Notes: a model not told the origin generated them from the letters alone. A stretch of 64,000 nucleotides of DNA from a virus (IMGVR_UViG_3300032235_001020:1-64000), one strand, 5' to 3'; shown: positions 23,546-57,255, counted from the first letter of the stretch. A program made the numbers and translations.

Positions 23546-23557
23546 GGGTAGAGGGTT

Positions 23558-37439: not shown

Positions 37440-37497
37440 GGAATTCGAGAAGGCGCAAGCCAGGCTAACCGGATTGCAAGATCTGGCAAGCAGCTTG

Positions 37498-38305: not shown

Positions 38306-38385
38306 CGGGGAGTCTTGTGTCGGCCCTTCAGGCTAAGGAGGGTTGCAAGCCCCTTCATCATTTCGCACGATTTGTCTTACGTAGC

Positions 38386-39920: not shown

Positions 39921-39989
39921 GAGCCTGAGAACGGCTCGCCATACGCTAGTGAAAAACAGATGTGACATTTGATGCACTGTTGGTGCAAT

Positions 39990-40015
39990 AAAAAAGCCGG
40001 CCTGGTGGGGCCGGC
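39990..40015 (-). terminator. Intrinsic terminator
   Basis: GCCGGCC-ccacca-GGCCGGC-TTTTTT. Confidence 0.85.
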
Positions 40016-40033
40016 GTGATGGGCGGATGTGAT

Positions 40034-40303
40034 CTAGCGCTGTTCCAGTGCAATCTGGATGGCGGCCTGGAAGTAGCCCGCGACCTTCATGCGGCGGAAC
40101 TCGGCGTGGCCCTCGTCGGATTGCTTGCGATCGAGCTGCTCGTGGTTGCGGCGGGACTCATTGAGGGCAGCGAGGGTCTCGACGTTGAGCATCTCGAGCT
40201 CCTTGGCTGAGAGCTGAGAGAGCTTGTCCAGCTCGATGTTCTTGCCAAGGATGAACGAGCGGAAGAAGGGCATGAAGGATGTATCGGTCATGGCAGTAGA
40301 CAT
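40034..40303 (-). CDS. Hypothetical helical protein
   Basis: ORF before the terminator. Confidence 0.6.
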   Translation of the reverse strand: MSTAMTDTSFMPFFRSFILGKNIELDKLSQLSAKELEMLNVETLAALNESRRNHEQLDRKQSDEGHAEFRRMKVAGYFQAAIQIALEQR

Positions 40304-40571
40304 GGTTTGGGAGCGGTGCGGAGGGAAAGAGAGTGGGTGGCGTCCGGGCTATTGGAGGAGTGCCCTGATCACGCCAGATGAGGTAAGCTGTTGGTCCAAT
40401 GATTTTCAGGAATCACTGGGCATTCCGTAGCTGGCCGGCTGCGGTGAGGTGGGCACCTCGTGAGGACCCGCCACCGGCCACCCCATTACGGCAGGATCTT
40501 GGACGCCAGCCATAACGTCAGGCAGCAGACCACGACGTAGGCGACGAGCAGCTCGAACATTAGGTGGACGG

Positions 40572-40787
40572 TCATTGGTCCTCCAGCTCGGCGGCGATGG
40601 CGAGGAGACGAAGGCGCGTCAGTTGTCGGGCTTCTACTGCGGCATCCACTCCGGTCAAATACTCGTGCGGCACCACCTGATCCGCAGCGGCGCGGAGGGC
40701 GGCGGCGACTCGCTTGGATCCAACCAACGGTTTTTCGCAGTAGTACGCATCCAGCACAGTTTGTGCGGCGGGGGAGAGGTCAGTCAT
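40572..40787 (-). CDS. Cyanophage hypothetical protein
   Basis: MTDLSPAAQ.VLDA, AAALRAAADQVVP, LAIAAELE. Confidence 0.65.
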   Translation of the reverse strand: MTDLSPAAQTVLDAYYCEKPLVGSKRVAAALRAAADQVVPHEYLTGVDAAVEARQLTRLRLLAIAAELEDQ

Positions 40788-41151
40788 CGGGCAGGGCCTC
40801 CAGGGCGCGGCGGATGGTGTGTTGGTCATCGGCAGTAGGAAGTTGATCTATGCGGTCCAATGCCTCAAGCGCTTGCTCCTTCAAGCTCGGCGCCTTGGGG
40901 CGGCGGGCGGCGCGGAGGTTCCCAATCCCTCCTGGGTACTCATCCCGACACCAACCAGCCAGCCACTCACAGCACGCCTCGAGCTCCTGGTCGGCGCCCC
41001 ATTGGGCGGCGCGGGTGGCCAAGTCATCTACGTCGAAGTGGATCTCGCCTGTTTTGGATGCATCGCACCACTGCTGCACCAGCTCCGGCGGCGGGGTGAT
41101 GCCGGAACTCCTAATTTGGCTTGGATTAGGAGTTGGTTGGGAGTTGGTCAT
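40780..41151 (-). CDS. Cyanophage hypothetical protein
   Basis: ITPPPELVQQW, WGADQELEACCEWL, RAARRPK.PSLKEQAL. Confidence 0.65.
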   Translation of the reverse strand: MTNSQPTPNPSQIRSSGITPPPELVQQWCDASKTGEIHFDVDDLATRAAQWGADQELEACCEWLAGWCRDEYPGGIGNLRAARRPKAPSLKEQALEALDRIDQLPTADDQHTIRRALEALPDD

Positions 41152-41411
41152 TCGGGTATGTCATTGATAATGGCGTGCTCACCGATGATGGCAAGTGCTG
41201 CCTTGTTGTAGGCGCGAGCTGCATCGATCTCACTGACATGGTTGCCGAGGTAGTAGCGCCGTCCCTTGTACGTCAGGTTGGCTCGATACAAGCCTTTGTT
41301 GCCCTTGCTGACGCCTCGGTACTTGCTGTAGGCAGTAGCAGGCCTGGGCCTCGATGCCTGAGACAGGTAGAAGTCCTTGTCAGACATCTTCCGAGTGAGA
41401 TAGCTAACCAT
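41148..41411 (-). CDS. AP2 DNA-binding domain protein
   Basis: SKYRGV, YLG...SE..AARAYN.AA..I.GE.A..N. Confidence 0.85.
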   Translation of the reverse strand: MVSYLTRKMSDKDFYLSQASRPRPATAYSKYRGVSKGNKGLYRANLTYKGRRYYLGNHVSEIDAARAYNKAALAIIGEHAIINDIPE

Positions 41412-41796
41412 TGGTGCTTACGGTTCTGCTGGTGCGTTATTGCGGTGACTGCTGGCAGCAGTGGATGCTTTGTCAGCGGGGCTGAGTGGCCTGGCCGTGG
41501 GTGGTGGCCCAGCGCGCCAGGGCGCCAAGGGCAATGCCAACTGCGAGTGCAAAGAAGGCGGAGCGTTTCATGACAGTTGGGTGAGGTAGATCGTGACGGC
41601 AAGGATGCCGAGTAGCCAGGTCAGTCCGAAGGTGACGATGGGAGGCATTGCGGGTACATGCGGAGGAGCTGTGCCTTGCGCTCGTCAATCAGGTGAGCGG
41701 ATGAGACGATCGAGCACGGTCCGCCTGGGATGCAGATGCGGTAGCAGTCGTGCCCGTGGGAGTCGATGTAGTACTCGACATCGAGGTCGTCAGGGG

Positions 41797-42162
41797 TCAT
41801 TGAGCTGGGGTGGCTTCAGGATCCGAGGCAGCGGATGGTCCGGTCATCTGCTCGTAGTGCGAACGCAGGACTTCTTGCCACTGCCAGGCTGACCACTGGC
41901 GACCCGTGCGGAGATTGAGGATGCGGCTGGGTGAGTAGGAACCCAGTAGCAAGCCACCGGCCTCATGGGGTAGGAGTGCCCCGAAGGCCAGGAGTTCACT
42001 GCGCTGAATCTTGAGGTCAGCGGGCAGTGCGCCGGCGGTCCGGGGTGTAGTGGAACTGGCGGCCGTGGTCGTAGATGAGTCTGTACTCAATGTCATTGTC
42101 TGCGCAGGTCTTAATGAGCTCACGGAGTTGGGCTCCGTTGTGGAGGGGGAAGTAGACGTCAT
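41797..42162 (-). CDS. Hypothetical protein
   Basis: Start/stop overlap with the upstream gene. Confidence 0.45.
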   Translation of the reverse strand: MTSTSPSTTEPNSVSSLRPAQTMTLSTDSSTTTAASSTTPRTAGALPADLKIQRSELLAFGALLPHEAGGLLLGSYSPSRILNLRTGRQWSAWQWQEVLRSHYEQMTGPSAASDPEATPAQ

Positions 42163-42944
42163 TGACCGGCAGGGACGGGTAGTGGACGAGCATGGGAGTG
42201 ACCGCTGCGGGAGTAACCGGAGAATTGACCCTGGGCTCGGCGCTGCTGGATGGCTTGCCCGGCTGCGGAGTGCTTGGGTTGGGTGCCATGAACAAGGTGT
42301 GCGAAATGAGTTGGTGTTGTTTGGTAGGCCAGGGCGTCAGTGAAGTCAATGGCCAGGCCCAGAGCGTATGCCTCTTCTTGCGTATTGACAACCCTCGCTG
42401 TCCGAGGAAACAGACCGTCTGCCAGGAGGAAGTCGTAGCGCCCGCCCCAGGAGGCGGTCATGGTCATGTTGCTGGGCAGGGGCAGTAGCGCACCGCGATC
42501 CAGCCAGAGCGGCAGGTTCTTGCTGTACAGGTAGAACTGGAGGTCGCTATGGCGTTGAGCGGTCTCGATCAGGGCATCACGCAGCTGGTCGTTGTAGCAA
42601 TCGCCGGAGGTGAACCAGCGGACGCGTTCGGTGTAGCTGCGGACCTGGGCGCGCAGGGACAGATCCAGTAGATCGGCCATGGCGCCAGCGTTGAGCCCGC
42701 GCAGCAGTGACCAGTTGTGGTGGCGCGACTTGCGGACGGAGGGCCGGGTCTCCTCGCTGGCGGCAGAGCAGCGAAACAGGGTGTGTTCGCCGTCGGTGAT
42801 CCTGCCTGTCGTGGGGTCGGCCTTGGACAGACAGAGCAGAGCGCCCGGGCAGGTGAAGCCAGCGGGCAGAGCGAACGTCATGGTGGTGTTGGGCAGCTTG
42901 GCGTTGCCGTGCCCGAACCGCAGCAGCTGATCTGACAGGGTCAT
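42159..42944 (-). CDS. GP88-family protein
   Basis: GNAKL, F.LPAG.TCPGA..C, VRW..SGD, FY.YSK. Confidence 0.75.
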   Translation of the reverse strand: MTLSDQLLRFGHGNAKLPNTTMTFALPAGFTCPGALLCLSKADPTTGRITDGEHTLFRCSAASEETRPSVRKSRHHNWSLLRGLNAGAMADLLDLSLRAQVRSYTERVRWFTSGDCYNDQLRDALIETAQRHSDLQFYLYSKNLPLWLDRGALLPLPSNMTMTASWGGRYDFLLADGLFPRTARVVNTQEEAYALGLAIDFTDALAYQTTPTHFAHLVHGTQPKHSAAGQAIQQRRAQGQFSGYSRSGHSHARPLPVPAGQ

Positions 42945-43268
42945 GCGCCCTCCTGGCGAAGGGCGGCAGCGCGCATATGCTGAAGTTGGGTCTCGGCTAC
43001 AGCCTGTGCTCGCTGAATACCGAGCTCCAGTTGGGTGATTGAGCTGAGCAGCGCGCGCTCATCGTTGGGTTCGATGGAGGTATTGGACTCGCGGTAATGA
43101 GCCAGGAGACCAAGGAGCTCGAAGTACAGGGTTTCGGCTTGCGGCGGGGAGAGCCGGAGATGAACGGCTGAGGGTCTGGGGAACATGCACAGGTGTTGAG
43201 GTGCATGCAAAAAGGCCGCCCCGCGAGATGCGAGACGGCCGGTGAGGTGTTGGATGTTTGGTGATGGC

Positions 43269-43445
43269 TTAGCCGCCTTGACCGTTCATGGCGCACTCGA
43301 GCAGGTAGGCGCAGAGGTTGGACAGCGATCGCCCTTCCTGGTCACTGCGGACCTGCAGGAGGGTGAACAGCGTCGGGTTGAGGGAGACCGTGACCCGTTT
43401 GCTGATGCTCGTGTTGCGGCGGCTGCGGGGTTGAGTGATGAACAT
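43269..43445 (-). CDS. Ribbon-helix-helix (RHH_5/CopG-like) DNA-binding protein (absent from ORF track)
   Basis: Manual translation MFITQPRSRRNTSISKRVTVSLNPTLFTLLQVRSDQEGRSLSNLCAYLLECAMNGQGG. Confidence 0.8.
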   Translation of the reverse strand: MFITQPRSRRNTSISKRVTVSLNPTLFTLLQVRSDQEGRSLSNLCAYLLECAMNGQGG

Positions 43446-43571
43446 GGTGGGTTGGGAGTGTGAGTTGAGAGGCGAGGGTGTCGTCGTGCCAGTGCTCCAG
43501 GCGGGTGGCTTCTATGTGGTGTGTCAGGACTAGCCGGCTGCCATCGGGAAGCAGGACCGTGATGACCTGCT

Positions 43572-43964
43572 CTACGGGGAGGTCGATGGTTGCCATTGCT
43601 GTCGCTCAGGTAGATGGGACCAGGACGTGCGCTTGCCGATGCGGTAGTACGTGCTCGAGGCAATGCCAAAGCGGCTCTTGATCTGCATGTAGGTCAGACC
43701 CTGGTCGTAGGCCTGACGGATGGCGTAGACATCCTTGTCCTGCAGAATCGCCAGCGGGTTGCTCTCGCCTTTAAGGGCGTAGTTGATGTTGCGCCGGGTA
43801 GCGCCTCGCTTGGGCCCTGGCTTGGGCTTGATGTAGCACTCCTTGGTGATGAACCGGGTGTCACAGTCGAAGCAGCGGATGTACCTGCGTTGATGGTCGG
43901 GGTAGATCTCCGTGCAGGTGACACGGGTCTGCTTGGAGTTGCAGGTGCGGCAGTGCATGGCCAT
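43572..43964 (-). CDS. NrdR-like zinc ribbon + HTH protein
   Basis: C..C...TRV, RR...C..C..RF.T.E; GE.NP.A.L...V..IR, FGI..ST. Confidence 0.7.
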   Translation of the reverse strand: MAMHCRTCNSKQTRVTCTEIYPDHQRRYIRCFDCDTRFITKECYIKPKPGPKRGATRRNINYALKGESNPLAILQDKDVYAIRQAYDQGLTYMQIKSRFGIASSTYYRIGKRTSWSHLPERQQWQPSTSP

Positions 43965-44398
43965 CGCTTGCTCAGGCCCTGGGACGATGGCGGGTCAGCG
44001 GATAGCCCAGGTCATTGAGCTTGGCGTACTCGCGCTGGGACAGCCACCGCACTACGAGGTGGGGCGGCAGGAGTGGCATAGACAGCCAGGGATGCCGCTT
44101 GCTGGTATCCACGATGCGACGAGAGATCGAAGCAAGGTGCTCGATGCGGTGCTTGGCCTGGAGCAGCGGAGTGAGATGAAGCACGAGAGGTATCTGGAGT
44201 GGGGTCAGATCGTCAGACCCTTAGGGGTAGCGGAGCTTGATGCCAGACGACGGCGTGTCAGTTTCTGACACTTTGTATGGGGAGTCGTTGAGTCAGGGGC
44301 CGGTAGCCAGCCCGTTGGCGTAGCTGCCTTGCGGTGATTGCACCGTGGGCCAGGGGGTGCCCGCGAGGATCAGCGTGCAGCCGATGAGGACTGCCATT

Positions 44399-44608
44399 TC
44401 AAGCAGCCTGCGCTTGCGCCCTGGAGAACGCCTCGGCGTTTTGATCGTGGATGAGCTGATCAGGCGGCAGCGTGCCATGCGCCCAGAGGAAACGGGTACG
44501 GAAACGCGGCGGCGGCGGATCACCCGGGGCGGCAATGGCGGCAAGCTTGGCGACATAGATGGAGTAGTCATGGATGTCTGCGTCAGTGATGAATTGGCGG
44601 TCGGTCAT
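44399..44608 (-). CDS. Hypothetical protein
   Basis: In-operon ORF. Confidence 0.45.
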   Translation of the reverse strand: MTDRQFITDADIHDYSIYVAKLAAIAAPGDPPPPRFRTRFLWAHGTLPPDQLIHDQNAEAFSRAQAQAA

Positions 44609-44612
44609 GGCG

Positions 44613-44807
44613 TCAGGTGTGGGAGCGACCGTTGGCTTCGATGAGTCCGTAAAGCCCGCACCAGGGCAGGGTTCCGGTGATGGCCCCGTCCATGAAGGGA
44701 TCAGGGCGGAAGTCTTCAAGGAGGACGTCGACGGGTGTGTTCTTCTCGGCGGCGCAATCGAGGAAGCGTCGCTGCTGGGCGGGAGAAAGCTGTTGGAGGG
44801 TGAGCAT
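44613..44807 (-). CDS. Hypothetical protein
   Basis: C-terminal GLIE.NG.SHT motif. Confidence 0.55.
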   Translation of the reverse strand: MLTLQQLSPAQQRRFLDCAAEKNTPVDVLLEDFRPDPFMDGAITGTLPWCGLYGLIEANGRSHT

Positions 44808-44859
44808 GAGATGCGAAAGAAGAGGAGATCGCCCCACGGGTGTGAGGCGTGGGTGGGGT

Positions 44860-45888
44860 TCAGGCGGCGACGAGTTCGCGTTGCTCGAGGAACTGGCCTT
44901 CGAGGAAAGCGAGGAAGCCGGTAGCGGTACGGGCTCGTGCGCCTTCGAGCTGGGAGCGGAAGGCGGTGGCGTCGTTGCGCACCTTCTCGTGGGAGGTGTA
45001 CTGGGTGACGGCCGAGGCCAGGCGCCAGGCATTGCCCGTGCGGGTATCGAGCTCACCACCGATTAGATCGCTGGTGTAGATCTGCTCGAGGCGCTGGGCG
45101 AGGCGACCTTGGCCTTCGGGGTCAGCGAAGTACGTGCGCAGGGCAGTGCGAGCGGTATCCATGGAGATCTCGGTCGCGATCATGCGCTCCTTCATGCGGT
45201 CGTAGGCCTTGCACTGCCGGACGGCATGGCCAAGGACGGCGTGGACGATGTCCTGGTTCATGGCCTGGGTGTGGCTGAGCCTGACCTCGCACTCGGTGAC
45301 CTTGCGGGCCAGGCCGTTGGTGCAGACCAGCTCATTGGCGATGACGGAGACGCGGGGGCGCAGTGCCTCGCCGAAAGACTCGCTCAGAACCAGCCAGTGG
45401 TCAGTGCGGTCTTCCTTGTTGATGTAGGCGGAGTGGCCGGGGCGGCTGATGAACAGCCCGCCATCGGCTTGGAGTAGTTCGCCGTTGTTGCCGCTGAGCT
45501 TGGCAGCCATGTAGAGGCTGCGGCCTTTGTTGTAGGCACCGACGACGTCGAGGGAGATGGCTTTGCCTGAGGCGTCGCAGAAGGCGCGGAAGTAGTCGAT
45601 GAAGGTGGAAGGCTGGATGGCCTGCCGCTTGGCACCAAAGAAGCCGAGGAGATCTTGGTTGTCGTCCCGGAGCCAGAGCTGGCAGTCGGGGTAGGGGCGT
45701 CCGGCGTGTACAGCGGGTGTACGTACAACATTGAAGTTGCAGCCGATCGAGGCGAGGATCTCGCTGTCGCTCATCCAGGGCTGGACTTCCGCGGCTGTGC
45801 CCCGGAACAGGGAGCGATCAGCAGGAGTGAGCTTGCTGGTTGAGGTGGTGGTGTCGGACTGGAGTGCTGTGGTGATGGTGGCGGTCAT
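44860..45888 (-). CDS. DUF932 domain protein
   Basis: VCTNG, ..SH, G.AW....AVTQY.SH. Confidence 0.8.
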   Translation of the reverse strand: MTATITTALQSDTTTSTSKLTPADRSLFRGTAAEVQPWMSDSEILASIGCNFNVVRTPAVHAGRPYPDCQLWLRDDNQDLLGFFGAKRQAIQPSTFIDYFRAFCDASGKAISLDVVGAYNKGRSLYMAAKLSGNNGELLQADGGLFISRPGHSAYINKEDRTDHWLVLSESFGEALRPRVSVIANELVCTNGLARKVTECEVRLSHTQAMNQDIVHAVLGHAVRQCKAYDRMKERMIATEISMDTARTALRTYFADPEGQGRLAQRLEQIYTSDLIGGELDTRTGNAWRLASAVTQYTSHEKVRNDATAFRSQLEGARARTATGFLAFLEGQFLEQRELVAA

Positions 45889-46478
45889 AGTTCAGAGGAA
45901 TCGTCTGGGTGATCGGTGATCTGGTCGAGGTAGGTGGTGACCGCAGTGCGCTCGACTTCCAGGGAGTCGAGGAGCTCGTCAGAGATGAGGAGGTGACTGC
46001 GGAAATCACGCATCAGGACACGCTTGGCTTTGAAGCGGTCCTCGATGAGCGCCTGCGCGCGTTGGCTGTAGTAGGGGTAGCCCACCTGGGTGAGCACGTC
46101 CTCGAGGTGCTTGACAGCGACCTTGAGGCCCAGGGTGTGGTCACGCATCACGCGTCCGAGCACCTGCTGATCAGCTGCGGGGAGCTGGTCATAGGGCTCG
46201 TCCTCGAGGGCCAGTGAGGTGAGGTGCTTCTCGAAGTGGCTTTCGACGTCGGTCAGCAGGTGCATGGCGGCAACCAGCATCTGGATGATGTTGGTGCCGT
46301 TGCTGGAGCGCTCGATCAGCTGGCAGATTGCAAACTGCAGATCGCAGGGCGCGCCGAGTTCGCCCCCGAAGTCCAGGGCTGGTACGACCTGACTGATGGG
46401 CAGCGGGTTGCGCCCACGCAGCAGGGTGTCGAGCATCTCAGGCGAGATGCTGTCCGGGATCTCGGGGGTTGCGGTCAC
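45885..46478 (-). CDS. Hypothetical protein
   Basis: Overlap-coupled ORF. Confidence 0.6.
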   Translation of the reverse strand: MTATPEIPDSISPEMLDTLLRGRNPLPISQVVPALDFGGELGAPCDLQFAICQLIERSSNGTNIIQMLVAAMHLLTDVESHFEKHLTSLALEDEPYDQLPAADQQVLGRVMRDHTLGLKVAVKHLEDVLTQVGYPYYSQRAQALIEDRFKAKRVLMRDFRSHLLISDELLDSLEVERTAVTTYLDQITDHPDDSSEL

Positions 46479-47092
46479 TGGAACTGGGGCTCGAGGTCAA
46501 GGGAGCGACGCAGGCGATCGACGGTGACCTCCAGGGTGTGGCGGTCAGGGTCAATGGCTTGTGACGAGACCCGCGCCGGTGCTTCGCCGCCCAGTTCGCC
46601 GTAGACGAAGAGGTCGATGAAGTTGGCAACGTGGCCGTAAGCGTTGGGCTTGGTGCCCCGCCGCGCACAGATTGTGCCTGCCATGGCTCGCATGTCAAGC
46701 ATTCTGTCAGCCGTGGCGAGCGATCCGAGCAGGGTGCGGACCGGCCAGGAGCTGCGGTCGGGTTTGCAGTTGAAGACCGGCAGCGACAGGACGAAGATGT
46801 GGTATGGGTGAGGGGAGCCGAGGGTGACGTCCAGGTAGAGCTTGCGGCGATCGCCTTGGCGCTCGAAGGCCTTGATGTCGTGGACGCCGAGGAAGTTCAG
46901 GCCGTCGTCGGGGCTGGAGAGAACGCGCTTGGGCGTGGCATGGGATTCGCCGTACTCATACAGCTGGCCGACTTGGTTGATACCAAGGCGGATGAACTTG
47001 GTATTGGGGGGTCGCTTGGTGATGGCAGCCGCGAGGGGATCGTCGATGTCTTCAAGGCAGAAGGGATCGTCGATGGGGGCGAGAGCGTTCAT
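46475..47092 (-). CDS. Hypothetical protein
   Basis: Preceded by the CAGCAGTGCAT motif 19 nt upstream. Confidence 0.65.
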   Translation of the reverse strand: MNALAPIDDPFCLEDIDDPLAAAITKRPPNTKFIRLGINQVGQLYEYGESHATPKRVLSSPDDGLNFLGVHDIKAFERQGDRRKLYLDVTLGSPHPYHIFVLSLPVFNCKPDRSSWPVRTLLGSLATADRMLDMRAMAGTICARRGTKPNAYGHVANFIDLFVYGELGGEAPARVSSQAIDPDRHTLEVTVDRLRRSLDLEPQFQ

Positions 47093-47111
47093 ACGAAGTC
47101 AGGTAACGACA

Positions 47112-47122
47112 ATGCACTGCTG
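47112..47122 (-). promoter_or_regulatory. Conserved CAGCAGTGCAT upstream motif
   Basis: Exact copy of the 11-mer also at 51000, 55769, 56173, 56425, 56709 and 56985. Confidence 0.7.
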
Positions 47123-47205
47123 AAAGAGTGCACGCAAAAAGCCCCCACCTGAGGCTCAGGCAGGGGCGGCTGAATAGACTGGGGCGAGGGTTAGATGACT
47201 GGATC

Positions 47206-47957: not shown

Positions 47958-47958
47958 G

Positions 47959-49286: not shown

Positions 49287-49323
49287 GAGTGGTTGTCTGG
49301 TGTGCGAAAGGAATGGATGGCGG

Positions 49324-50114: not shown

Positions 50115-50284
50115 GCTCGTGGCGAGGGCCGACGTAGTGCTGGATGACGAGCGCTTGCGGCCAGGCGGATGGTTGGCCGGTGCGGAGGTGATTGACGTAG
50201 GTGTTGCGCTCGAGCTGGCTGCTGAAGTCACAGCGCCAGCAGAGTGTGGTTTCGGTGTCATAGACGTAGACGGAGTAGCGGTGG

Positions 50285-50497
50285 TCAGTGGTGACGCGGC
50301 ACAGCAGATAGCGCGTTCCGCGCTCGCTTGAGGTGGCGGTCAAAGGACGCCAGTTGCCGCTTGATCGCTTGGACTGAGCGGTGGTCTTGGGACGGGTGGC
50401 CTGCCTTGAGGGCGCGTTGCGCTTCGAGCAGGAGTTCCGCGGTCGCATCACGGAGGCGAACCAGCGGAAGCAGGCGTGAATCGATGGCATCTCGCAT
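50285..50497 (-). CDS. Hypothetical protein
   Basis: Helical ORF downstream of a terminator. Confidence 0.45.
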   Translation of the reverse strand: MRDAIDSRLLPLVRLRDATAELLLEAQRALKAGHPSQDHRSVQAIKRQLASFDRHLKRARNALSAVPRHH

Positions 50498-50537
50498 GCT
50501 GCAAGCCGTAGCTTGCGCATTGTGGCTGGAAAATCCA

Positions 50538-50575
50538 GAAAGGGAAGCCCCGGCAGGCGGATTGCTCGCCGGGGC
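50538..50575 (-). terminator. Intrinsic terminator
   Basis: GCCCCGG...CCGGGGC stem followed by TTCCCTTTC. Confidence 0.65.
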
Positions 50576-50582
50576 GTGGAGA

Positions 50583-50957
50583 TCAGGCCGCGGTGGTGGC
50601 CTTGGCGTCAGCGGTTACGGACTCGGTTGCGGTCTCGGCAGCGGCCAGGCCGTGCTTGACCGCCTTGGTGTAGAGGGTCTTGGTGTAGACCTCCTTGGCC
50701 GAGATCGCGTAGACGCCGGTGGGCGAGGAGACGATCTTGCCGAAGTACAGAGCGCCGGTTTCGGGGCACTCGAACGTGTCGGCAGGGTTGTCCTTGCCGG
50801 CCATCTCGGTGAGGTGGTCGGACTTGAAGCCGGCGTTGATGGCGGTCTCACGGCGAGCCATGCCGCCGTTGCGGTTGGAGACCCAGGCCAGTTCGGCGTG
50901 GGTCCAGTTGCTGCCGGAGTAGAGGCGAGCGGAGATAGGGCCGAGGTTGAGTTCCAT
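50583..50957 (-). CDS. Early hypothetical protein
   Basis: Preceded by CAGCAGTGCAT at 51000-51010 and followed by a terminator. Confidence 0.65.
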   Translation of the reverse strand: MELNLGPISARLYSGSNWTHAELAWVSNRNGGMARRETAINAGFKSDHLTEMAGKDNPADTFECPETGALYFGKIVSSPTGVYAISAKEVYTKTLYTKAVKHGLAAAETATESVTADAKATTAA

Positions 50958-51069
50958 GGTGGGTTGCGAAAGTGATGTGAAACGAAGCAGGCCCCTTACA
51001 TGCACTGCTGTAAGAGGCCACAAAAACAAGCAATTAGAATGCAAGCAACGCAGTACGAGTCGTTCCGCG

Positions 51070-51555
51070 ATGCTTCGCGACATTGGCGCAAAGATCCAGG
51101 GCCTTGATGAGCGCGTGCGCCAGTCATGGGCCGAGCGAGCAATGGATGCCCGCTCCCGGCAATTGCAAGCTTCTTACAATGAGCTGTCGGGGCGGATGGG
51201 TGGCAAGAGCCCTGACGTTGCCAGCGTGAGCGCTGCAATTGCACATCGACTGCAAGGCTCTCCGGAGGATTACAGCAAGGTGCTGCAGAGCCGGGCAAAG
51301 GGCGCCCAGTCGGGCCGGGAGGCTCTGTACCAGCAAGCGGCTGCGGCAGAGAAGCCTGGCCTGGGAGTTCGGCTCAATGACATGCTGTCGGGAACAGATG
51401 CCATGAGCCGTGCTGGTCAGGTGGCGACTTACGGCGCCATTGGCGGCGGCACGGTTGCCGGTCTGACGGCTGCCGGTCAGGGCCTGGTGGCTCTGATGGG
51501 TTACCTGCAGCAAGGGCAGCAGGTCGAGGACGAGCGTCAGGCACCGCTGGCCTGA
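51070..51555 (+). CDS. Ala/Gly-rich putative virion-internal protein
   Basis: TAGAAT at 51035; GLTAAGQGL..LM.Y segment. Confidence 0.6.
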   Translation: MLRDIGAKIQGLDERVRQSWAERAMDARSRQLQASYNELSGRMGGKSPDVASVSAAIAHRLQGSPEDYSKVLQSRAKGAQSGREALYQQAAAAEKPGLGVRLNDMLSGTDAMSRAGQVATYGAIGGGTVAGLTAAGQGLVALMGYLQQGQQVEDERQAPLA

Positions 51556-51556
51556 T

Positions 51557-51697
51557 GTGGAATCACCGCAGCGCTGGGAATGTGAGCTGTGGGTCCGGAT
51601 CAAGGCCGCCTTGGAAGCAGGTGGCCGTACCCGGACGTCCCATTACGTCATGGCGGAAGAAGCAGTCCGCCTTTGCAAGCTGAAAAGCCATGGATAG
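51557..51697 (+). CDS. 46-aa paralog of the 39756-39920 protein (absent from ORF track)
   Basis: MESPQRWECELWVRIKAALEAGGRTRTSHYVMAEEAVRLCKLKSHG. Confidence 0.6.
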   Translation: MESPQRWECELWVRIKAALEAGGRTRTSHYVMAEEAVRLCKLKSHG

Positions 51698-51902
51698 CGA
51701 CTCTCGAGTACCTGCGGGATCTAGGTTTGGACTGGAACCGATGGACATACGCAAGGGCCTAAGTAACGGGTCTTTGAATGGACTGAGGCTGTCCGCTGCG
51801 GTTGGTCCCTTATGGCAAGGGAACCCGATGGCGCCAGAGAACAGTGAGCCGTACTACACGGCAAGTGGTGGATACCAGCCGGAGCAGGCGTACGGGGCCT
51901 AG
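51690..51902 (+). CDS. Hypothetical protein
   Basis: Overlaps the preceding small ORF. Confidence 0.45.
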   Translation: MDSDSRVPAGSRFGLEPMDIRKGLSNGSLNGLRLSAAVGPLWQGNPMAPENSEPYYTASGGYQPEQAYGA

Positions 51903-52090
51903 TCAGTAACAGGCCCCATCAGGCGCCGGAAGTCAGCGGTGAACTGGGCGCAATCGCTGACGGATTCCTCGATGTCGAGGAGGACGCGGGCCTCTGCTGC
52001 GAGGGTGAGGTTGGAGTCGAGCGCCAGGGTGCCGACGATGAAGCGGCGCTCGAGTGATTTGTCGTCGATAAAAAGGTTGGTAGTGGTCAT
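51899..52090 (-). CDS. Hypothetical protein
   Basis: Coupled ORF. Confidence 0.45.
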   Translation of the reverse strand: MTTTNLFIDDKSLERRFIVGTLALDSNLTLAAEARVLLDIEESVSDCAQFTADFRRLMGPVTD

Positions 52091-52284
52091 GAGTGTTCGT
52101 CTTGGTAGCGGATTAGAACGGTGCCGAAATAGCCGCCGAAGTCTTCGTCGATGTCGGGCTTGATGTAGGACAGGAAGCCGTCTTCGGTTGGCTCCTGCTG
52201 CTGTTCTTCGCAGTACTCGAGATAGAGGGCGGGTGTGTAGGTGAGGGTCTGGGTGGCCTGGACCTCGGAGATGTTGAAGGTCAT
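52087..52284 (-). CDS. Acidic hypothetical protein
   Basis: YTP..Y.EYCEE...EPT.DGFL motif. Confidence 0.55.
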   Translation of the reverse strand: MTFNISEVQATQTLTYTPALYLEYCEEQQQEPTEDGFLSYIKPDIDEDFGGYFGTVLIRYQDEHS

Positions 52285-52336
52285 GGGAGATCAGGTGCGG
52301 AGGTGTAGGTGGCGGGGGATTCGTAGTTGTTGGCTA

Positions 52337-52531
52337 TTAGTCTGGGAGTTCAGGGTGATCAGGAGTGTCAGTATCAGTAGAGGATTGTGCGTAGAGGTTG
52401 CCCTTGCCGTCGATGAAGAAGCCAAACCCGAAGCCGCCAGCGGCACGGGACTTGGCGTTGAGCTCGGATAGCAGGCGAAGCATTTGATCCCGGGCGGGAT
52501 CAGCGCCGTCTGCGGGAACGGGCTTGGTCAT
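52337..52531 (-). CDS. Hypothetical protein
   Basis: ATGA coupling to the PcfJ gene. Confidence 0.5.
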   Translation of the reverse strand: MTKPVPADGADPARDQMLRLLSELNAKSRAAGGFGFGFFIDGKGNLYAQSSTDTDTPDHPELPD

Positions 52532-54219
52532 TGGGCGAGTGCCTCGGATTGTTGTTGCAGCGCCTGTTGCATGCCTTGCTGATAGAGCAGGCGTTGGTCG
52601 GCGCTGAGTGATTGGTTGGAGGTGGAGACGACCTGGTCGGTAAGGAGCTGACCGTCGCGGTGGCTGAGCTGGATGGTGAAGGTGGGCTTGCCGTTGACCA
52701 TGCCGAGGACGATGAAGTTCTGGAACTTCTTGATGCGATCGGCATAGGCACCATTACCGACGCAATTGCGTACGGCGGTGCCCCACTCAGCCAGCTGGTG
52801 GACGGAGTTGGGCTGAAAGAAAGAGACGCGGTCATCGCTGAGGGTGACGCGAACGGGCTCGGGGAAAAGATCCTGAGGCAGTGGTGCATCAGGAGTCTTG
52901 AGTTTCCAGAGCCGCTCTTCTAGCTGGCGATTGAGATCAGCAAGGCGCAGGCGCTTGGGCCTGGGTAGCTCACGCACGCCGACCCAGCGCTGCTTTTCGT
53001 CTGACCAGGTCATGCCGTAGGTGATGTATTCAGCAAGTTGATGGTTGAACCTGTGGATGTCTGAGAGCCAGCAGTTGTCATGCTCTTCAGCGGAGCGGCG
53101 CATCCAGTGCACGAAGGTGGCCAGGGGCAGGTGCTCCCTGATCCAGGCGATCACGGGGTTCTCGCCAAAATGCCGGAAGCCGCTCTGGCCGTAGCGCCAG
53201 TTAGCGCGGGTGATGTTGTCGAACGACAGGCGGCGGTTGATCTGTTCGCTGAATGCCCAGAGCGCTTGAAGGTGATCAAGGCTGGCGTCGGGCCAGATCT
53301 CAGTGATGGGCTGGAGGCCTCCACACTGTTGCCTGAGAGCGATCCATTGATTGCGGACTTGGTGAGGCGATGCCACCGGAGCGTCGTACTCGGCGAGTAT
53401 GTCGTTGAGCTTGCCTTGGATCTGGTTGCGGAACCAGGGCGTATCAACGAGGGTGCCTTTGAGGAAGTCGGAGTGGGATGGCACCCAGCCCGCCGGGGCG
53501 TCCGTAATGCGCAGGATGGAGGCCCAGGTGTCCTGGACGCGAGCGAAGGGGCAGGAGCCCTGCTCTGCCCAGGACTTGCTGAGCATGGACTTGGCGTAGC
53601 GGTGGACGCGGTCGCCGGTCTGCTGGATGAACTCGCTGTTGGAGCAAGCGGCGCGACCGTTGTCTTGGCCAACGGTCCAGATGTTGGCGACGTGGAGATA
53701 GCGGGTGTCCGAGGCGACGCTGGCTTCCGTGAAATACCAGCGGCGCACTTTGAAGGTGGAGCGACTGCACTCGAGGATCTCGGCGGCCTCGTCGTCGAAA
53801 GGGTTAGAGCCGGGCGCTCCCTCGTAGAGGAAAAGCCGGTGCGGCAGTGAGGCTGCGCCTGGCCTGGCGGCCCATGCCAGATGTAGTCCCTCGGTGGGAT
53901 CGGCGTAGGCGGCGACCCAGAGTTTACGGCCGTCCCCGGCATTGACATGCCAGACGGCGGCTTTGAAGTTGGCGTCATCATCGAGCCAGTGCTCGTGCTG
54001 ACGAATGGCAGGTGAGTTGTTGATGGTTTGTAGCGCCCGCAGGAAGGCGTCTGCCGGGACGATCTCGGGAGGGATCAGTCCGACCGGCAGGCCAAGCGGG
54101 TAAGCAGGACCCCGTGTGGCCGAGCGCTGGGCAGCGGCCTCGGCCTTAAGTCTGCTACGCAGGGCGGGGTCGTACTTGGCGATGCGCTGCTGGAGATTGG
54201 CGGATACGGTGAATTGCAT
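52528..54219 (-). CDS. PcfJ-domain protein
   Basis: C-terminal QP.S..QL..WG..VRNCVG..Y...I, FTI.L, Q.....N. Confidence 0.75.
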   Translation of the reverse strand: MQFTVSANLQQRIAKYDPALRSRLKAEAAAQRSATRGPAYPLGLPVGLIPPEIVPADAFLRALQTINNSPAIRQHEHWLDDDANFKAAVWHVNAGDGRKLWVAAYADPTEGLHLAWAARPGAASLPHRLFLYEGAPGSNPFDDEAAEILECSRSTFKVRRWYFTEASVASDTRYLHVANIWTVGQDNGRAACSNSEFIQQTGDRVHRYAKSMLSKSWAEQGSCPFARVQDTWASILRITDAPAGWVPSHSDFLKGTLVDTPWFRNQIQGKLNDILAEYDAPVASPHQVRNQWIALRQQCGGLQPITEIWPDASLDHLQALWAFSEQINRRLSFDNITRANWRYGQSGFRHFGENPVIAWIREHLPLATFVHWMRRSAEEHDNCWLSDIHRFNHQLAEYITYGMTWSDEKQRWVGVRELPRPKRLRLADLNRQLEERLWKLKTPDAPLPQDLFPEPVRVTLSDDRVSFFQPNSVHQLAEWGTAVRNCVGNGAYADRIKKFQNFIVLGMVNGKPTFTIQLSHRDGQLLTDQVVSTSNQSLSADQRLLYQQGMQQALQQQSEALAQ

Positions 54220-54267
54220 GGTTCGACGTGGGTTGCGTTACGTGTGTCGTGGCAGGCAGATTGGCAT

Positions 54268-54302
54268 AAAAAGAAGCCCTGCTAGCGGGGTGCTGGCAGG
54301 GC
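54268..54302 (-). terminator. Intrinsic terminator
   Basis: GCCCTGCCAGC-acccc-GCTAGCAGGGC-TTCTTTTT. Confidence 0.8.
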
Positions 54303-54307
54303 GGGAA

Positions 54308-54541
54308 TCAGAAGGCAGGAGCGGGCCATGCGTAGCGCTCTTCGAGGGTGCGCTCGTAGATGGCCTCCAGGACTTCGATGCGTTCGTCGTCGAGTTCATC
54401 GCCGTGGTCTTCGTCGGAGGTGACGATGACCTCGCCGGGGAAGAGCTGCTCGAGGATCAGGCCGATGGGCTCGAGCTGGTCGGGGGTGCCGCGCACGGAG
54501 AGGCGGACGCGGCGATCGGGGCAGTACTGAGTGAGGACCAT
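54308..54541 (-). CDS. Acidic early protein
   Basis: ORF before the terminator. Confidence 0.55.
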   Translation of the reverse strand: MVLTQYCPDRRVRLSVRGTPDQLEPIGLILEQLFPGEVIVTSDEDHGDELDDERIEVLEAIYERTLEERYAWPAPAF

Positions 54542-54576
54542 GTGTTTGTTGAGAATAGTTTGCAGTAAGAGTTGAA

Positions 54577-54861
54577 TCAGGCGGTGAAGCCAGCGACGGC
54601 ACGGGACTTCGCCTTAGGAGCGGCGGTCCGTGCCTTGGGCTTGGCAGTGCTGATGTGCTGCGGGCGTGCGGGCTGGCATTCGATGACCAGGGTCTCGAGC
54701 TGCGGGGGTACGGTGCTTTCCCGTACTGGAGTCCTGGGCTCGGAGAAAAGGTCTTCGATGCCGGGGAAGAAGTTCTTCAGGCCCGGCCAGAGCAGGCGCT
54801 GCCAGAAGACGGTTGCTATTGCTGCGGTCCAGGCCGCGATGGTGATGATGGTGTTGCGCAT
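54577..54861 (-). CDS. TM-anchored early protein with a basic tail
   Basis: Preceded by the variant motif CAGCCGTGCAT (54896-54906). Confidence 0.55.
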   Translation of the reverse strand: MRNTIITIAAWTAAIATVFWQRLLWPGLKNFFPGIEDLFSEPRTPVRESTVPPQLETLVIECQPARPQHISTAKPKARTAAPKAKSRAVAGFTA

Positions 54862-54918
54862 GGTGGTTGCGAAAGAGCGAAGGAAGGGGCGCCCCATGCA
54901 CGGCTGCAGGGGCGCAGT

Positions 54919-54948
54919 AAAAAACCCCACCCGGCAGGCCGAGTGGGG
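54919..54948 (-). terminator. Intrinsic terminator
   Basis: CCCCACTCGG-cctg-CCGGGTGGGG-TTTTTT. Confidence 0.85.
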
Positions 54949-54973
54949 TGTGAGGTGAGATGGGGACTGGCGA

Positions 54974-55138
54974 CTAGCAGCAGAGCCAGATGGGAATCCC
55001 GAGTTGGGTCTGTCCCACCCGTTGACAGCGCATGAGGTCCGGGGACACCCAGGCAGCGACGTGGAAGCAGCTGCTCTGGGCGATGGCAGTCGAGGGGGCT
55101 AGTGCCAGTAGGGCGAGGAGTGGGAAGAGGTAGCGCAT
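54974..55138 (-). CDS. Small signal-peptide-bearing Cys-rich protein
   Basis: MRYLFPLLALLALAPSTAIA signal peptide, four Cys. Confidence 0.55.
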   Translation of the reverse strand: MRYLFPLLALLALAPSTAIAQSSCFHVAAWVSPDLMRCQRVGQTQLGIPIWLCC

Positions 55139-55214
55139 GGGGGCGTAGTCAGTGGAGGAAGAATAGAGCAAAGGAATTTCTTGCGATCAGAAGGTATAAG
55201 AAGTACTGGGGAGC

Positions 55215-55712
55215 TCAGAAGGCGACTTCTTCGCTGGTGGGCTCGGCGTAGGGCTTGAGGGTTTCGGGCTCAGCTACGGGAGCTGAGTTGAGGACCTCGA
55301 TGCGCTGAGCGCGGAGTTGTCTGCGGAAGGCGACGGGGTAGCCGCGTTCGTTGCGGGTGATCTCGCCGTAGACGGTCCAGTAGCCGCTGATGGCGACCCT
55401 GGCCCATTCGGTGGTGTTCGCGATCTGCTGGATTTCAGTCGCGATGGGCACACCGTTGTCGGTGGCGATGATCGAGTCGATGGGCAGGTCGACGCGGATT
55501 TCCTTGCCAGCGCGGTTGTCGCTGGTGGAGTTGGTGAGGATGGCCGAGACGGTGAACTTGCCGCCATCGGGACGGGAGATGTCCTTCACGGCTTTGAGCA
55601 TGCCGACGAGTCGGACCATGCCAGCCGTCTTGGGATCTCCGTTCGAGGTGGCGAGTTGTGCTTCGAGCTCGTTGATGCGAGCTTCGAGGTCGGCCTTGGT
55701 GGCGATTGCCAT
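55215..55712 (-). CDS. OB-fold/SSB-like early protein
   Basis: V.L.G.L, V.ISGY, L.A.RIEVL beta pattern; acidic tail EEVAF. Confidence 0.5.
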   Translation of the reverse strand: MAIATKADLEARINELEAQLATSNGDPKTAGMVRLVGMLKAVKDISRPDGGKFTVSAILTNSTSDNRAGKEIRVDLPIDSIIATDNGVPIATEIQQIANTTEWARVAISGYWTVYGEITRNERGYPVAFRRQLRAQRIEVLNSAPVAEPETLKPYAEPTSEEVAF

Positions 55713-55841
55713 GGGTGGTGCCGGCGGCGCCGGTGCGAAAGAACCACGCCTCATGTCAGGCAGCGTCAATGCACTGCTGAAAGGAGGCAATAAAAAAGCC
55801 CCCACCCGCAAAAGCGAGTGAGGGCATGTGTGTGCTCGAGC

Positions 55842-56114
55842 TCAGAAGGGGCAAACGTCCAGCTCGAGCTGGTGTATTGCCGGCCGATTGAGGTTGGCGA
55901 GCTCCTGGCACCAGGCGATATGCCGGCGCTGGAGATCACCGAGCGGGTGGCCGTCCATGATCTGGTCGATCATGGCGTTGAGGTGCTCGCGTGCGACTTC
56001 GATCTCCTGGGAGATCTCGCCGTGGAGCTTGCGGCCATCGTCGGTGATGGTGACGCCAGCGCGCGCCAGGAGGCGAAGTTGCTGGCTGAGACGGTAGAGC
56101 TTGCCTTCCGTCAT
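55842..56114 (-). CDS. Cassette early protein
   Basis: Lies between repeat units; ends LELDVCPF. Confidence 0.65.
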   Translation of the reverse strand: MTEGKLYRLSQQLRLLARAGVTITDDGRKLHGEISQEIEVAREHLNAMIDQIMDGHPLGDLQRRHIAWCQELANLNRPAIHQLELDVCPF

Positions 56115-56238
56115 GGTGGTAACCGGGGATCCCGGGGCGAAAGAACCACATGCCGTCAGTCAGGTAGCGCGTATGCACTGCTGAAAGAGGGCAATAAAAA
56201 AAGCCCCCACCCCGGGTAAGCGGAGTGAGGGCTGTGGA

Positions 56239-56406
56239 TCAGAGGTGGAGAGGAGGCGCGTCGACTGCGGCCATGTACTCATCGAAGGTGAGTACGTAGG
56301 GGCTGTGGTAGTCGGCCTCCTCTTTGGAGGAGTGGAGTCTTGCGGCCCAGCCGGAGTCGGGATCGGTGGGATCGACGGGCTCGTAGGCGACGAAGAGGTT
56401 GGACAC
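56239..56406 (-). CDS. Cassette acidic 55-aa protein
   Basis: GTG 18 nt after the motif; stop just before the next terminator. Confidence 0.6.
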   Translation of the reverse strand: MSNLFVAYEPVDPTDPDSGWAARLHSSKEEADYHSPYVLTFDEYMAAVDAPPLHL

Positions 56407-56492
56407 CGTAGTTAGGCAGCGCGAATGCACTGCTGAAAGAGGGCAATAAAAAAGCCCCCACCCCGGTAAGCGGAGTGAGGGCGAGGGCGTGG

Positions 56493-56690
56493 TCAGCGGA
56501 AGAGATGTGGTGTCTTGACGGGGTTGATGAGGCCGAGGCCGTAGAGGGCGAAGCCGACTGCGACACCAGCGCCGCCGATGAGGCCATGGGCGCCGAAGAG
56601 TAGATAGCCAATGCCGCCATAGATGAGGCAGCCGAGGGCGAGTCCACCGAGAGAGCCGAGGACGTAGCCGAACCAGATGGGGAGGGTCAC
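56493..56690 (-). CDS. Cassette Gly-rich membrane protein
   Basis: GTG 18 nt after the motif; glycine-zipper TM segments. Confidence 0.6.
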   Translation of the reverse strand: MTLPIWFGYVLGSLGGLALGCLIYGGIGYLLFGAHGLIGGAGVAVGFALYGLGLINPVKTPHLFR

Positions 56691-56786
56691 CGGAGTTAGG
56701 CAGCGCAAATGCACTGCTGTTGGAGGTCAATAGAAAAGCCCCCACCCCGGACAAGCGGAGTGAGGGCTAGGACCCACAAGGAGAAG

Positions 56787-56966
56787 TTAACGAGTTGCCA
56801 GATAGGTCCGGCAGAACTCGAGGTGGGCGGCGTGCTGGTGGACGGGCCAGTTCTGCTGGGCGCATTGAGCGCGGGTGGCGGTGTCGAGTTGAGCGACTGC
56901 GGAGTGGATGCCGGCGATGACGAGGACGGGGGTGGCGATGAAGAAAGCGAGGAGAGCGCGTGTCAT
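56787..56966 (-). CDS. Cassette TM/signal-anchored protein
   Basis: ATG 18 nt after the motif; C...NWP.HQH.AH.EFC..Y. Confidence 0.65.
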   Translation of the reverse strand: MTRALLAFFIATPVLVIAGIHSAVAQLDTATRAQCAQQNWPVHQHAAHLEFCRTYLATR

Positions 56967-57255
56967 CGGAGTCAGGCAGCGCGTATGCACTGCTGTTAAG
57001 GGTCACACCCCTGAACCCGCTCCTGTTAACGCGCGTGGCGTGTACCCTTGGCGTGATTTAACAGCGGAGAGGGGTCCAAGCACGGCGCGACGCGAGCGGG
57101 GAGAAGGGTGTGCGGCAGAGCAGATGCGGGGTGGAGCGTGTCGTGGTGAGTAACCTCCAGCGGAGAGAGAGTGGAGGCGTGTGGAATGTGCGGAGAGTAA
57201 AACAGAGAGCACAATAGAAGCATTGGGTAATACCGCGGCGCGCTAGAATAGGGGC

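Follow-up and report, generated by a model that had tools for sequence, protein, structure and literature searches.

T7-type promoters are contiguous blocks, nearly identical from copy to copy, that are read by a single-subunit phage RNA polymerase, and T4 late promoters consist of a single short -10 element, with no -35 element, read by the divergent phage sigma factor gp55. The early promoters of phage N4 hold a conserved sequence within a constant short hairpin and are read by an injected virion RNA polymerase. Stoperators are asymmetric sites of 11-13 bp, present in many copies and one orientation within short intergenic gaps, spread genome-wide with no set spacing from terminators or start codons. 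The promoter part of the promoter-early stem-loop (PeSL) unit is an ordinary host-type early promoter. In the sections of the published reports drawn on here, PeSL cassettes of T4-like phages are proposed sites of gene-cassette exchange (PMC4122927), stoperators are treated for Cluster A mycobacteriophages (PMC9283540), and the SAS/ESAS sequences of Cluster K mycobacteriophages are described as asymmetric, in one orientation near the starts of some non-structural genes across subclusters, and sometimes accompanied by imperfect inverted repeats, with SAS containing the Shine-Dalgarno core AGGAG 3-7 bp from the start codon (PMC3203893). The element considered here is an 11-mer, CAGCAGTGCAT, that recurs between genes of IMGVR_UViG_3300032235_001020, an IMG/VR virus record of 84,980 bp and 61% G+C; its bases 1-64000, the whole stretch of DNA that was analyzed, are called the window below. 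The motif does not satisfy the full definition of any known family considered. By our comparison its layout comes closest to the PeSLs of T4-like phages, and its strictness and co-variation come closest to those of promoters used by phage-specific polymerases or sigma factors. On balance the sequence favors, by a modest measure, the reading that the 11-mer is the core of a promoter class distinct from sigma70 promoters, set in terminator-promoter cassettes and giving leaderless or short-leader mRNAs.

Seven exact copies of CAGCAGTGCAT occur in the window, all on the minus strand, against a chance expectation of 0.08; seven copies were reached in none of 100 shuffles. The complete genome holds the same seven and no further one, and the reversed-pattern control gave 0. 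All seven are intergenic, in a genome whose intergenic share is 13.6% according to our own gene caller (0.136^7 ~ 9e-7). The initial annotation of this DNA had listed these seven copies together with three variants, and both lists were reproduced; the variants, CAACAGTGCAT at 39972 and CAGCCGTGCAT at 54896 with one mismatch each and CACCTGTGCAT at 43185 with two, occupy the same context as the exact copies. The remaining one-mismatch matches (17379, 26040, 27353, 41456, 43948, 54182, 58193) lie inside called genes and lack that context. The annotation had also placed every site between genes, which holds for all of the exact copies but not formally for 39972 and 43185, where the gene caller set a start codon within the motif; we consider those starts doubtful. 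A whole-genome search confines the asymmetric motif, always in a single orientation relative to transcription, to one 17-kb arm, with no genome-wide spread. This arm (39.9-57.0 kb, leftward) encodes small open reading frames (ORFs), mostly without known families. A regular expression for the core matched 15 times on the minus strand of the 39-58 kb arm and once on the other strand. Five copies fall within the arm's first 1.3 kb, the first of them preceding the arm's first gene. Published sequences that contain CAGCAGTGCAT or its complement appear to have unrelated uses among the matches listed, judged by title and the start of the abstract.

A strong minus-strand intrinsic terminator precedes eight of the ten sites, the exceptions being 56985 and 51000, as had been noted of most sites beforehand. 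The gap from the end of the T-tract to the start of the motif is 11-14 nt at these sites, apart from the shorter gap at 39972. Of the nine minus-strand terminators that our own script located in the 39-58 kb arm, eight have the core within the next 40 nt. A stricter script, demanding a T-run of 5 or more, found nine minus-strand terminators in the whole genome, seven of them in the arm, and the motif or a variant follows 7/7 of these; by the same script no motif follows the other two (84588, 25309) or any of the three plus-strand terminators. The eighth arm terminator, 56768-56737, has a TTTTCT tail and comes from a scan tool. The resulting units of ~70 nt are near-identical within the genome. 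At four sites the motif begins 29 nt (three cases) or 30 nt (one case) before the start codon (Table 1), just as first reported, so that the start codon stands 18 nt after the 11-mer in this phage. No Shine-Dalgarno sequence was found at the motif-served starts.

Conservation reaches beyond the 11-mer, which forms the core of an element stretching from T-10/G-9 to about +25. A table of 48 distinct CA.C.GTGCAT instances was compiled from this genome and its relatives; three were dropped (antisense in or beside the region of the gene for a 777-aa protein that adjoins the arm, and without context), and the other 45 were reduced to 34 non-redundant sites, with positions counted from the motif's first C as 0. 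Positions 0, 1, 3 and 5-10 were set by the search expression and are uninformative, while the free core positions are G at 2 in 32/34 sites and A at 4 in 31/34. Upstream, T-10 (31/34), G-9 (33/34) and C-6 (32/34) are conserved, with a pyrimidine tract to -1; downstream, G15 (30/34), G18 (28/34), T21 (31/34), A23 (23/34) and T25 (28/34) are conserved. All 34 sites run from T-10 through T25 without indels, a rigid block of 21 to 36 bp. The initial annotation had noticed that several copies continue into a dyad and CTRAC. The dyad, GCAGTGC-n4-GCGCTGC, is present with CTRAC at five sites (56985, 56709, 56425, 56173, 55769) and degenerate at 47112; in the high-GC clade it is imperfect, 18 bp long, with half-site centers 11 bp apart. 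Because the dyad and CTRAC/CTGAC are limited to the high-GC clade and absent from two low-GC relatives, G006 and G007, we do not count them as part of the core.

Some smaller features lie between the motif and the start codon. The long leaders at 56114-56160 and 55712-55750 (minus strand), and homologous leaders at L016, L050, L051 and L014, carry GGTTCTTTCGCC and then a 5-bp hairpin right before the start codon. The stems, compared by eye, are CCGGG/CCCGG here and CCTGG/CCAGG or CCGGC/GCCGG in other copies, which looks like compensatory change in an RNA structure. A box, GCCTGCTTCG, stands at 50985-50994 (minus strand), 17-18 nt after the motif start, and again in L160 near ~4805 and L159 near ~8021; it is retained at the homologous site even in a relative of 41% G+C. 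A shorter CTTCG occurs at offset 23-24 in most high-GC sites.

The motif persists in relatives of this phage. Four IMG/VR contigs (G001-G004) carry 6-7 exact copies each on one strand, with 0 in the reversed control. In L044/L051, whose neighboring 777-aa protein is 52% identical, five exact copies and one CAGCCGTGCAT stand in the 10 kb ahead of the gene for that protein, again after terminators. Flanks, terminator stems and downstream genes diverge among the relatives while the core is unchanged. The extended pattern, with 17 specified bases, matched 24 stretches in 11 IMG/VR contigs, most with several matches on one strand; eight of the 11 are also among the portal or 777-aa relatives, and the comparison covered those eight. 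Among 185,579 bacterial and archaeal species genomes the same pattern gave three single matches, in unrelated Proteobacteria, where ~2 were expected; the matches are thus at about the level of chance, suggesting no prophage or host copy.

The portal family comprised 1871 proteins at E <= 1e-20 and 218 IMG/VR loci, and three long contigs were inspected in full as distant relatives. G005 (61% G+C, with a portal of 78% identity) carries both CAGCAGTGCAT and one-base variants, with the core after four of six arm-strand terminators. G006 (41% G+C, portal 71%) has CA[ACT]CAGTGCAT (CAnCAGTGCAT), never the exact G-containing form, after 10/13 terminators, and G007 (42% G+C, portal 71%) has CATCAGTAC[TGA]T (CATCAGTACnT) after 9/11. 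The GTGC of other lineages has become GTAC in 12 of the 13 T-tract-associated sites listed for G007; the thirteenth, CAACAGTGCAT, follows no terminator. T-10, G-9 and the T at -1 are retained in both G006 and G007, a run of T comes after the core, and the block T-10 to T10, contiguous and free of indels in the 34 sites, reappears in their consensus; a contiguous block of ~20 bp common to all copies is also a mark of single-subunit (T7-like) polymerase promoters. These two genomes leave ~12 nt from T-tract to motif and 0-5 nt from 11-mer to start codon. Start codons that open an ORF of >=30 codons stand at offsets 10-16 in nine of 12 sites in G006 and nine of 13 in G007, and none is closer than 10. 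The genes around the sites differ between relatives: 39 genes are called in 39.2-57 kb, and a tblastn match was found for 21 in G005 and for only four in G006 or G007, the cassette being kept. Synechococcus phage S-EIVl has no copy of the motif, and its equivalent arm uses TAnnnT boxes such as TAAACT; the G008 and G009 contigs do not include the equivalent arm. All copies change together between lineages, which fits co-evolution with one lineage-specific trans-acting reader.

In the arrangement we propose, the motif class would drive the leftward small-ORF arm. An intrinsic terminator would end the upstream gene, its T-tract running into TG (-10/-9), C at -6 and a pyrimidine tract, and then into CAGCAGTGCAT, with transcription starting within the 11-mer or a few bases 3' of it, at roughly positions 9 to 15; this range is suggested by the short distances from T-tract to motif and from 11-mer to start codon in the low-GC relatives. 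Since no start codon there lies closer than 10, the motif would cover the -10/initiation region, if transcription starts there. The conserved purines at 13 and 15 are candidate start bases. Leaders in this phage would then be 14-20 nt long, with no Shine-Dalgarno sequence, or 45-70 nt and CU-rich at some sites, and the low-GC relatives would make leaderless or nearly leaderless mRNAs. The reader would be a form of RNA polymerase other than the host primary-sigma holoenzyme, either with an unrecognized phage-encoded specificity factor or polymerase or with a host alternative sigma factor. We infer initiation at the motif, its position and the reader from sequence. A more specific version, offered tentatively and in our view rather doubtful, is that a widespread aquatic lineage of S-EIVl relatives encodes or injects an unrecognized factor or RNA polymerase reading a ~20-bp promoter, TG-N2-C-N5-CAnCAGTRC, that co-evolves with it in each lineage and yields leaderless mRNAs from the cassettes.

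Ordinary promoter signals are scarce where the motif occurs. No TAnnnT box stands in the 90 nt before the motif-served starts, in keeping with the earlier description, and a sigma70 scan of 39-58 kb gave two matches against 3.3 expected, none at motif sites. The arm has serial strong terminators, no ordinary promoter, and the motif; a promoter is needed here. The second class of box that had been described, with TAGnnT as its -10 element, is real: TAGA[AC]T has 15 of its 20 copies between genes, at an intergenic density of 0.65 per kb compared with 0.03 per kb in coding sequence, a ~20-fold enrichment, and many start codons have a TAGnnT box, mostly TAGACT/TAGAAT, 21-33 nt ahead of them. Such boxes stand before late rightward genes (57814, 60420, 63881, 67060, 73171, 81396), leftward replication genes (38108, 36777, 32979, 25358, 20563) and the three rightward genes that lie within the small-ORF arm (47206, 51070, 51741); none precedes any minus-strand gene between 39.9 and 57 kb. 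The host primary-sigma holoenzyme appears to serve these boxes. The box at 67048 is only 6 nt from the terminase ATG, which suggests a leaderless terminase mRNA.

Known promoter types were tried on the element, taking as rules the consensus sequences of sigma70, extended -10, sigma54 (GG/GC ~10 bp apart, -24/-12) and extracytoplasmic function (ECF) promoters. A primary sigma70 promoter at the motif was rejected for want of a TTGACA-like -35 and a TATAAT-like (TAnnnT) -10 hexamer 16-18 bp apart. A sigma54 promoter was rejected as well: placing the GC of TGCAT at -12/-13 puts C or T where GG is needed (-4/-3) in nearly all of the 34 sites. Extended -10 and ECF-like registers were rejected on the same table.

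Several observations weigh against a promoter at the motif. Every register tried by hand on the 34-site table lacks either the A that sigma70 requires at -11 or the T that it requires at -7, and recognition by any sigma70-family factor would be hypothetical. No gene for an RNA polymerase, a sigma factor or a known appropriator turned up in the complete genome, whether with Pfam on all 121 calls, PHROGs on nearly all of them, NCBIfam on 33 unknowns or six-frame searches. The six-frame search of the whole genome gave no Sigma70 region 2, region 4_2 or T7-type polymerase, a weak blank for the last, as the T7-type control matched nowhere. The DxDGD motif occurs in no plausible protein of the genome. 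Should the arm genes be the earliest expressed, any reader encoded by the phage would need to enter by injection or to have been produced beforehand from TAGnnT promoters. The start codons and gene calls are all predictions of our own script, and the cyanobacterial host is one that we infer. Hairpins add to these points. At type A sites (most sites of the high-GC clade) positions 0-8 can pair with 13-22; 90% of cells are paired, with two compensatory pairs (A:T to C:G and G:C to A:T), a result reached in three of 500 shuffles. At type B sites (51000, 54896 and homologues) a stem of 7-10 bp, with arms that by eye co-vary in relatives, holds the motif in its loop. Hairpins with covariation would also fit a role in RNA or single-stranded DNA.

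These structures differ between sites and are gone in G006 and G007, and for that reason we assign them a secondary role, perhaps in modulating the element or in ending upstream transcription. The 51000 site has no separate terminator and its hairpin arms co-vary in relatives; with TGCTTCGTTTC behind it, this hairpin may also serve as the upstream gene's terminator. A different hairpin, pairing upstream TGnCC with GTGCA, was rejected, with 74.5% of cells paired, no covariation, and the observed value reached in 500/500 shuffles.

The search for a reader was carried further among the phage proteins. The initial annotation had expected a sigma factor, RNA polymerase or activator gene outside the window; the remaining 21 kb, together with six frames, held no recognizable RNA polymerase or sigma factor. 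Its proposal of a separate non-sigma70 class at the -10/initiation position is nonetheless supported, and strengthened by the placement of the sites, by the relatives and by the concerted change, the part left unsupported being a phage sigma factor, RNA polymerase or activator, encoded outside the window, as the reader. A giant virion polymerase gene was not found, the largest ORF, of 1846 aa, matching tail-fiber families. The 777-aa protein adjoining the arm fell into no Pfam, PHROGs or NCBIfam family and matched no PDB sequence below E = 0.07, and its Atlas matches lie below 0.9; its AlphaFold model is poor (predicted local distance difference test, pLDDT, 56.5; predicted template modeling score, pTM, 0.27), and Foldseek found nothing in PDB at E <= 0.001. 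Other conserved unknown proteins (444, 206, 201 and 233 aa) have no PDB sequence match below E = 0.6. Unknown proteins common to G000, G005, G006 and G007 and unmatched in S-EIVl include those at 19452-20072, 34741-35178, 36057-36758, 37498-38103 and 24157-24363; these are leads only, and their neighbors suggest nucleotide or recombination functions.

The 11-mer could instead be an asymmetric binding site for a phage DNA-binding protein, either a repressor operator or stoperator or an activator site, that gates promoters or an elongating polymerase. We judge this unlikely, if the best of the alternatives. A non-palindromic motif in one orientation, with many nearly invariant copies, is what such a protein might use, and the concerted change between lineages fits a co-evolving binding protein too; however, promoters would still be required between each terminator and start codon, where no other promoter-like box is found, and G006 and G007 leave little room there. 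The spaced half-sites of the high-GC dyad point toward protein binding, but the dyad is missing from G006 and G007. The phage has a serine recombinase/integrase and weak candidates for the protein with helix-turn-helix (HTH, 27984-28697), ribbon-helix-helix (RHH, 43269-43445) and AP2-like (41148-41411) domains. No motif copy stands at 27851-27983, next to the putative repressor gene, the sites are limited to one arm, and tblastn gave no match for the RHH and AP2-like candidates in G005, G006 or G007, all of which have the cassette, so neither is likely to be a universal reader. The operator alternative, raised in the initial annotation, is accordingly weakened by the cassette geometry, by the loss of the dyad and by confinement to one arm.

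Less probable again is a motif that acts in RNA, within the 5' untranslated region of read-through transcripts, as a processing site, a stabilizing 5' hairpin, a Shine-Dalgarno substitute or a reloaded antitermination signal. The distance to the start codon is fixed per lineage, at 29 nt for many unrelated genes in the high-GC clade and at 10-16 nt in G006/G007, and Shine-Dalgarno sequences are lacking, both of which would suit such a role; yet the distance from 11-mer to AUG varies by lineage, 18 nt versus 0-5 nt, which argues against positioning of the ribosome. The T.G pair at 6/15 of type A sites is almost invariant, a wobble tolerated in RNA only on this strand; added to the two compensatory changes and to folding energies of -9 to -23 kcal/mol (z-scores as low as -4.3), it favors RNA pairing, but the hairpin partner is missing in G006, G007 and the type B sites, and no Rfam family matches the window. 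Polymerase would have to read through 8-11 strong serial terminators, and an RNA signal gives no ready account of the TG and C that are conserved upstream of the motif, right beside the T-tract. It is very improbable that the terminator-plus-motif unit is mainly a substrate for cassette exchange by recombination between related phages, with expression secondary: near-identical units and a cassette kept among differing ORFs would fit, but recombination needs no deeply invariant 11-mer, fixed orientation or fixed start-codon distance, the terminator stems diverge where the core does not, and such exchange is compatible with a regulatory cassette and probably its by-product.

Read as a promoter, the element can be set beside each of the described systems. 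It shares with PeSL cassettes, in the sections of that report used here, a small terminator/promoter unit repeated between small variable ORFs in an early plastic region, with units alike within a genome (PMC4122927); it differs in lacking -35/-10 boxes and in having an invariant 11-mer, and the phages are unrelated. Here the terminator and its recurrence between variable ORFs are seen in the sequence, and the joined motif would supply the promoter activity. With T7-type promoters it shares a contiguous ~20-bp block, nearly identical in all copies, before the presumed start and changing together between phages, whereas no T7-like polymerase gene was found in the phage and the bases before the presumed start are G+C-rich. 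T4 late promoters are similar in having one short element in the -10 region without a -35, and a gp55-type factor is poorly detected by general sigma models; here, in contrast, the sequence is unrelated, a conserved upstream TG lies ~15 bp before the 3' half of the core, and no gp55-like gene was detected in the phage. N4 promoters likewise embed a conserved sequence in a short hairpin ahead of the earliest genes, repeated several times where the early region begins, but the hairpin here is inconstant (downstream pairing in type A, a loop in type B, none in G006/G007) and no virion polymerase gene was found in the genome. Asymmetry, copy number, single orientation and short intergenic placement recall stoperators, although the present sites keep to one arm and are locked to terminators. 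SAS resembles the motif as an asymmetric conserved sequence in one orientation close to the starts of unrelated genes; the motif differs in having no AGGAG-like core, standing 18 nt from the start codon, varying in that distance by lineage, and following terminators.

If these sites are promoters, this phage group would run two transcription programs, one from TAGnnT boxes and one from a strict, lineage-specific element outside the known sigma rules. A specificity factor would then await discovery in a phage lineage common in lakes and sea and probably infecting picocyanobacteria. The motif offers a handle for annotating the cassette arm in uncultured relatives, for studies of leaderless translation, and for recovery of the reader by DNA affinity. 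Should it prove an operator or RNA signal instead, it would still be a clean, conserved regulatory code of a poorly known phage group.

Table 1. Coordinates of motif sites, terminators and TAGnnT boxes (window positions unless stated)
Feature	Position	Strand	Context
Copy 1, CAGCAGTGCAT	56985..56995	-	head of leftward small-ORF arm; no upstream terminator; ATG 56966, 29 nt from motif start
Copy 1, full element	about 56970-57006	-	
Copy 2, CAGCAGTGCAT	56709..56719	-	after terminator 56768-56737; GTG 56690, 29 nt
Copy 3, CAGCAGTGCAT	56425..56435	-	after terminator 56482-56454; GTG 56406, 29 nt
Copy 4, CAGCAGTGCAT	56173..56183	-	after terminator 56233-56202; leader ~69 nt with small hairpin, then ATG 56114
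Copy 5, CAGCAGTGCAT	55769..55779	-	after terminator 55825-55798; long leader; conserved ATG 55712
Variant CAGCCGTGCAT	54896..54906	-	after terminator 54949-54924; arms GCGCCCC / GGGGCGC enclose motif; conserved ATG ~54861 (offset 45)
Copy 6, CAGCAGTGCAT	51000..51010	-	loop of hairpin GGCCTCTTAC...GTAAGGGGCC (51019-50990), then TGCTTCGTTTC; ATG 50957
Copy 7, CAGCAGTGCAT	47112..47122	-	after terminator 47167-47141; ATG 47092, 30 nt
Variant CACCTGTGCAT	43185..43195	-	after terminator 43240-43214; downstream start codon uncertain
Variant CAACAGTGCAT	39972..39982	-	after terminator 40015-39996, gap 7 nt; last site of arm
Intrinsic terminator before copy 2	56737..56768	-	13-bp stem, then TTTTCT; 56202-56233, 56454-56482 and 55798-55825 near-identical
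Intrinsic terminator before 54896 variant	54924..54949	-	
Intrinsic terminator before copy 7	47141..47167	-	
Intrinsic terminator before 43185 variant	43214..43240	-	
Intrinsic terminator before 39972 variant	39996..40015	-	
TAGnnT boxes	57778-57783, 60390-60395, 63845-63850, 47175-47180, 51035-51040	+	
TAGnnT boxes	38330-38335, 37462-37467, 33318-33323, 27893-27898, 21301-21306	-	
TAGnnT boxes	67048, 73133, 81346	+	genome coordinates
TAGnnT boxes	74211, 75227	-	genome coordinates

The phage is a freshwater virus of ~85 kb and a distant relative of Synechococcus phage S-EIVl, its sole named relative, with which its portal-like protein shares 47.7% identity. The genome has a 123-bp direct terminal repeat, and 121 genes were called by our own codon-bias script. 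Rightward genes run from 57.8 kb through the genome end to 18.1 kb, a block that includes terminase, the portal-like protein, major head protein, endolysin and tail-fiber proteins. Leftward, minus-strand genes fill 18.1-57.0 kb; those at 18-39 kb are nucleotide and replication genes (MazZ-like pyrophosphohydrolase, ThyX, dCMP deaminase, VapE-type primase-helicase, exonuclease and single-stranded DNA-binding protein, SSB). A DUF3288 gene and a short CP12-like gene are present and fit a cyanobacterial host; a scan of genome contigs with the DUF3288 protein, made for the host, found no relative.

Other features of the genome are recorded here. The two divergent arms are separated by 847 nt without called genes (56967-57813), a stretch rich in CACGC/CACACGC-like repeats, with rightward TAGAAT (57244) and TAGCGT (57371) boxes distant from any ORF; it could be a replication origin or a non-coding RNA. 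A cluster at 18147-24097 (minus strand) brings together a MazZ-like dATP/dGTP pyrophosphohydrolase N-domain protein, three conserved unknown proteins, ThyX and dCMP deaminase, and is kept in G005-G007 at up to 84% identity, which hints at a non-standard base in the phage DNA; no PurZ-like gene was recognized in the genome. No DNA polymerase family was detected among the phage proteins, S-EIVl being annotated with a family A polymerase. Large proteins without any family are encoded at 57814-60147, 61392-62726, 31594-32982 and 29375-30295. A large serine recombinase/integrase (13897-15144, plus strand) and a weak HTH_3 protein (27984-28697, plus strand), the latter encoded divergently from the primase operon, hint that the phage is temperate; the recombinase has no tblastn match in G005-G007 or S-EIVl. 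Homing-endonuclease-like genes (AP2/HNH-like, HNH, LAGLIDADG) are scattered at 41148-41411, 43572-43964, 22260-22970 (minus strand) and, in genome coordinates, 75819-76589 (minus strand). A palindromic 10-mer, ATGGCGCCAT, counted eight times on both strands and thus present at four sites, is among the commonest 10-mers after GGC repeats.

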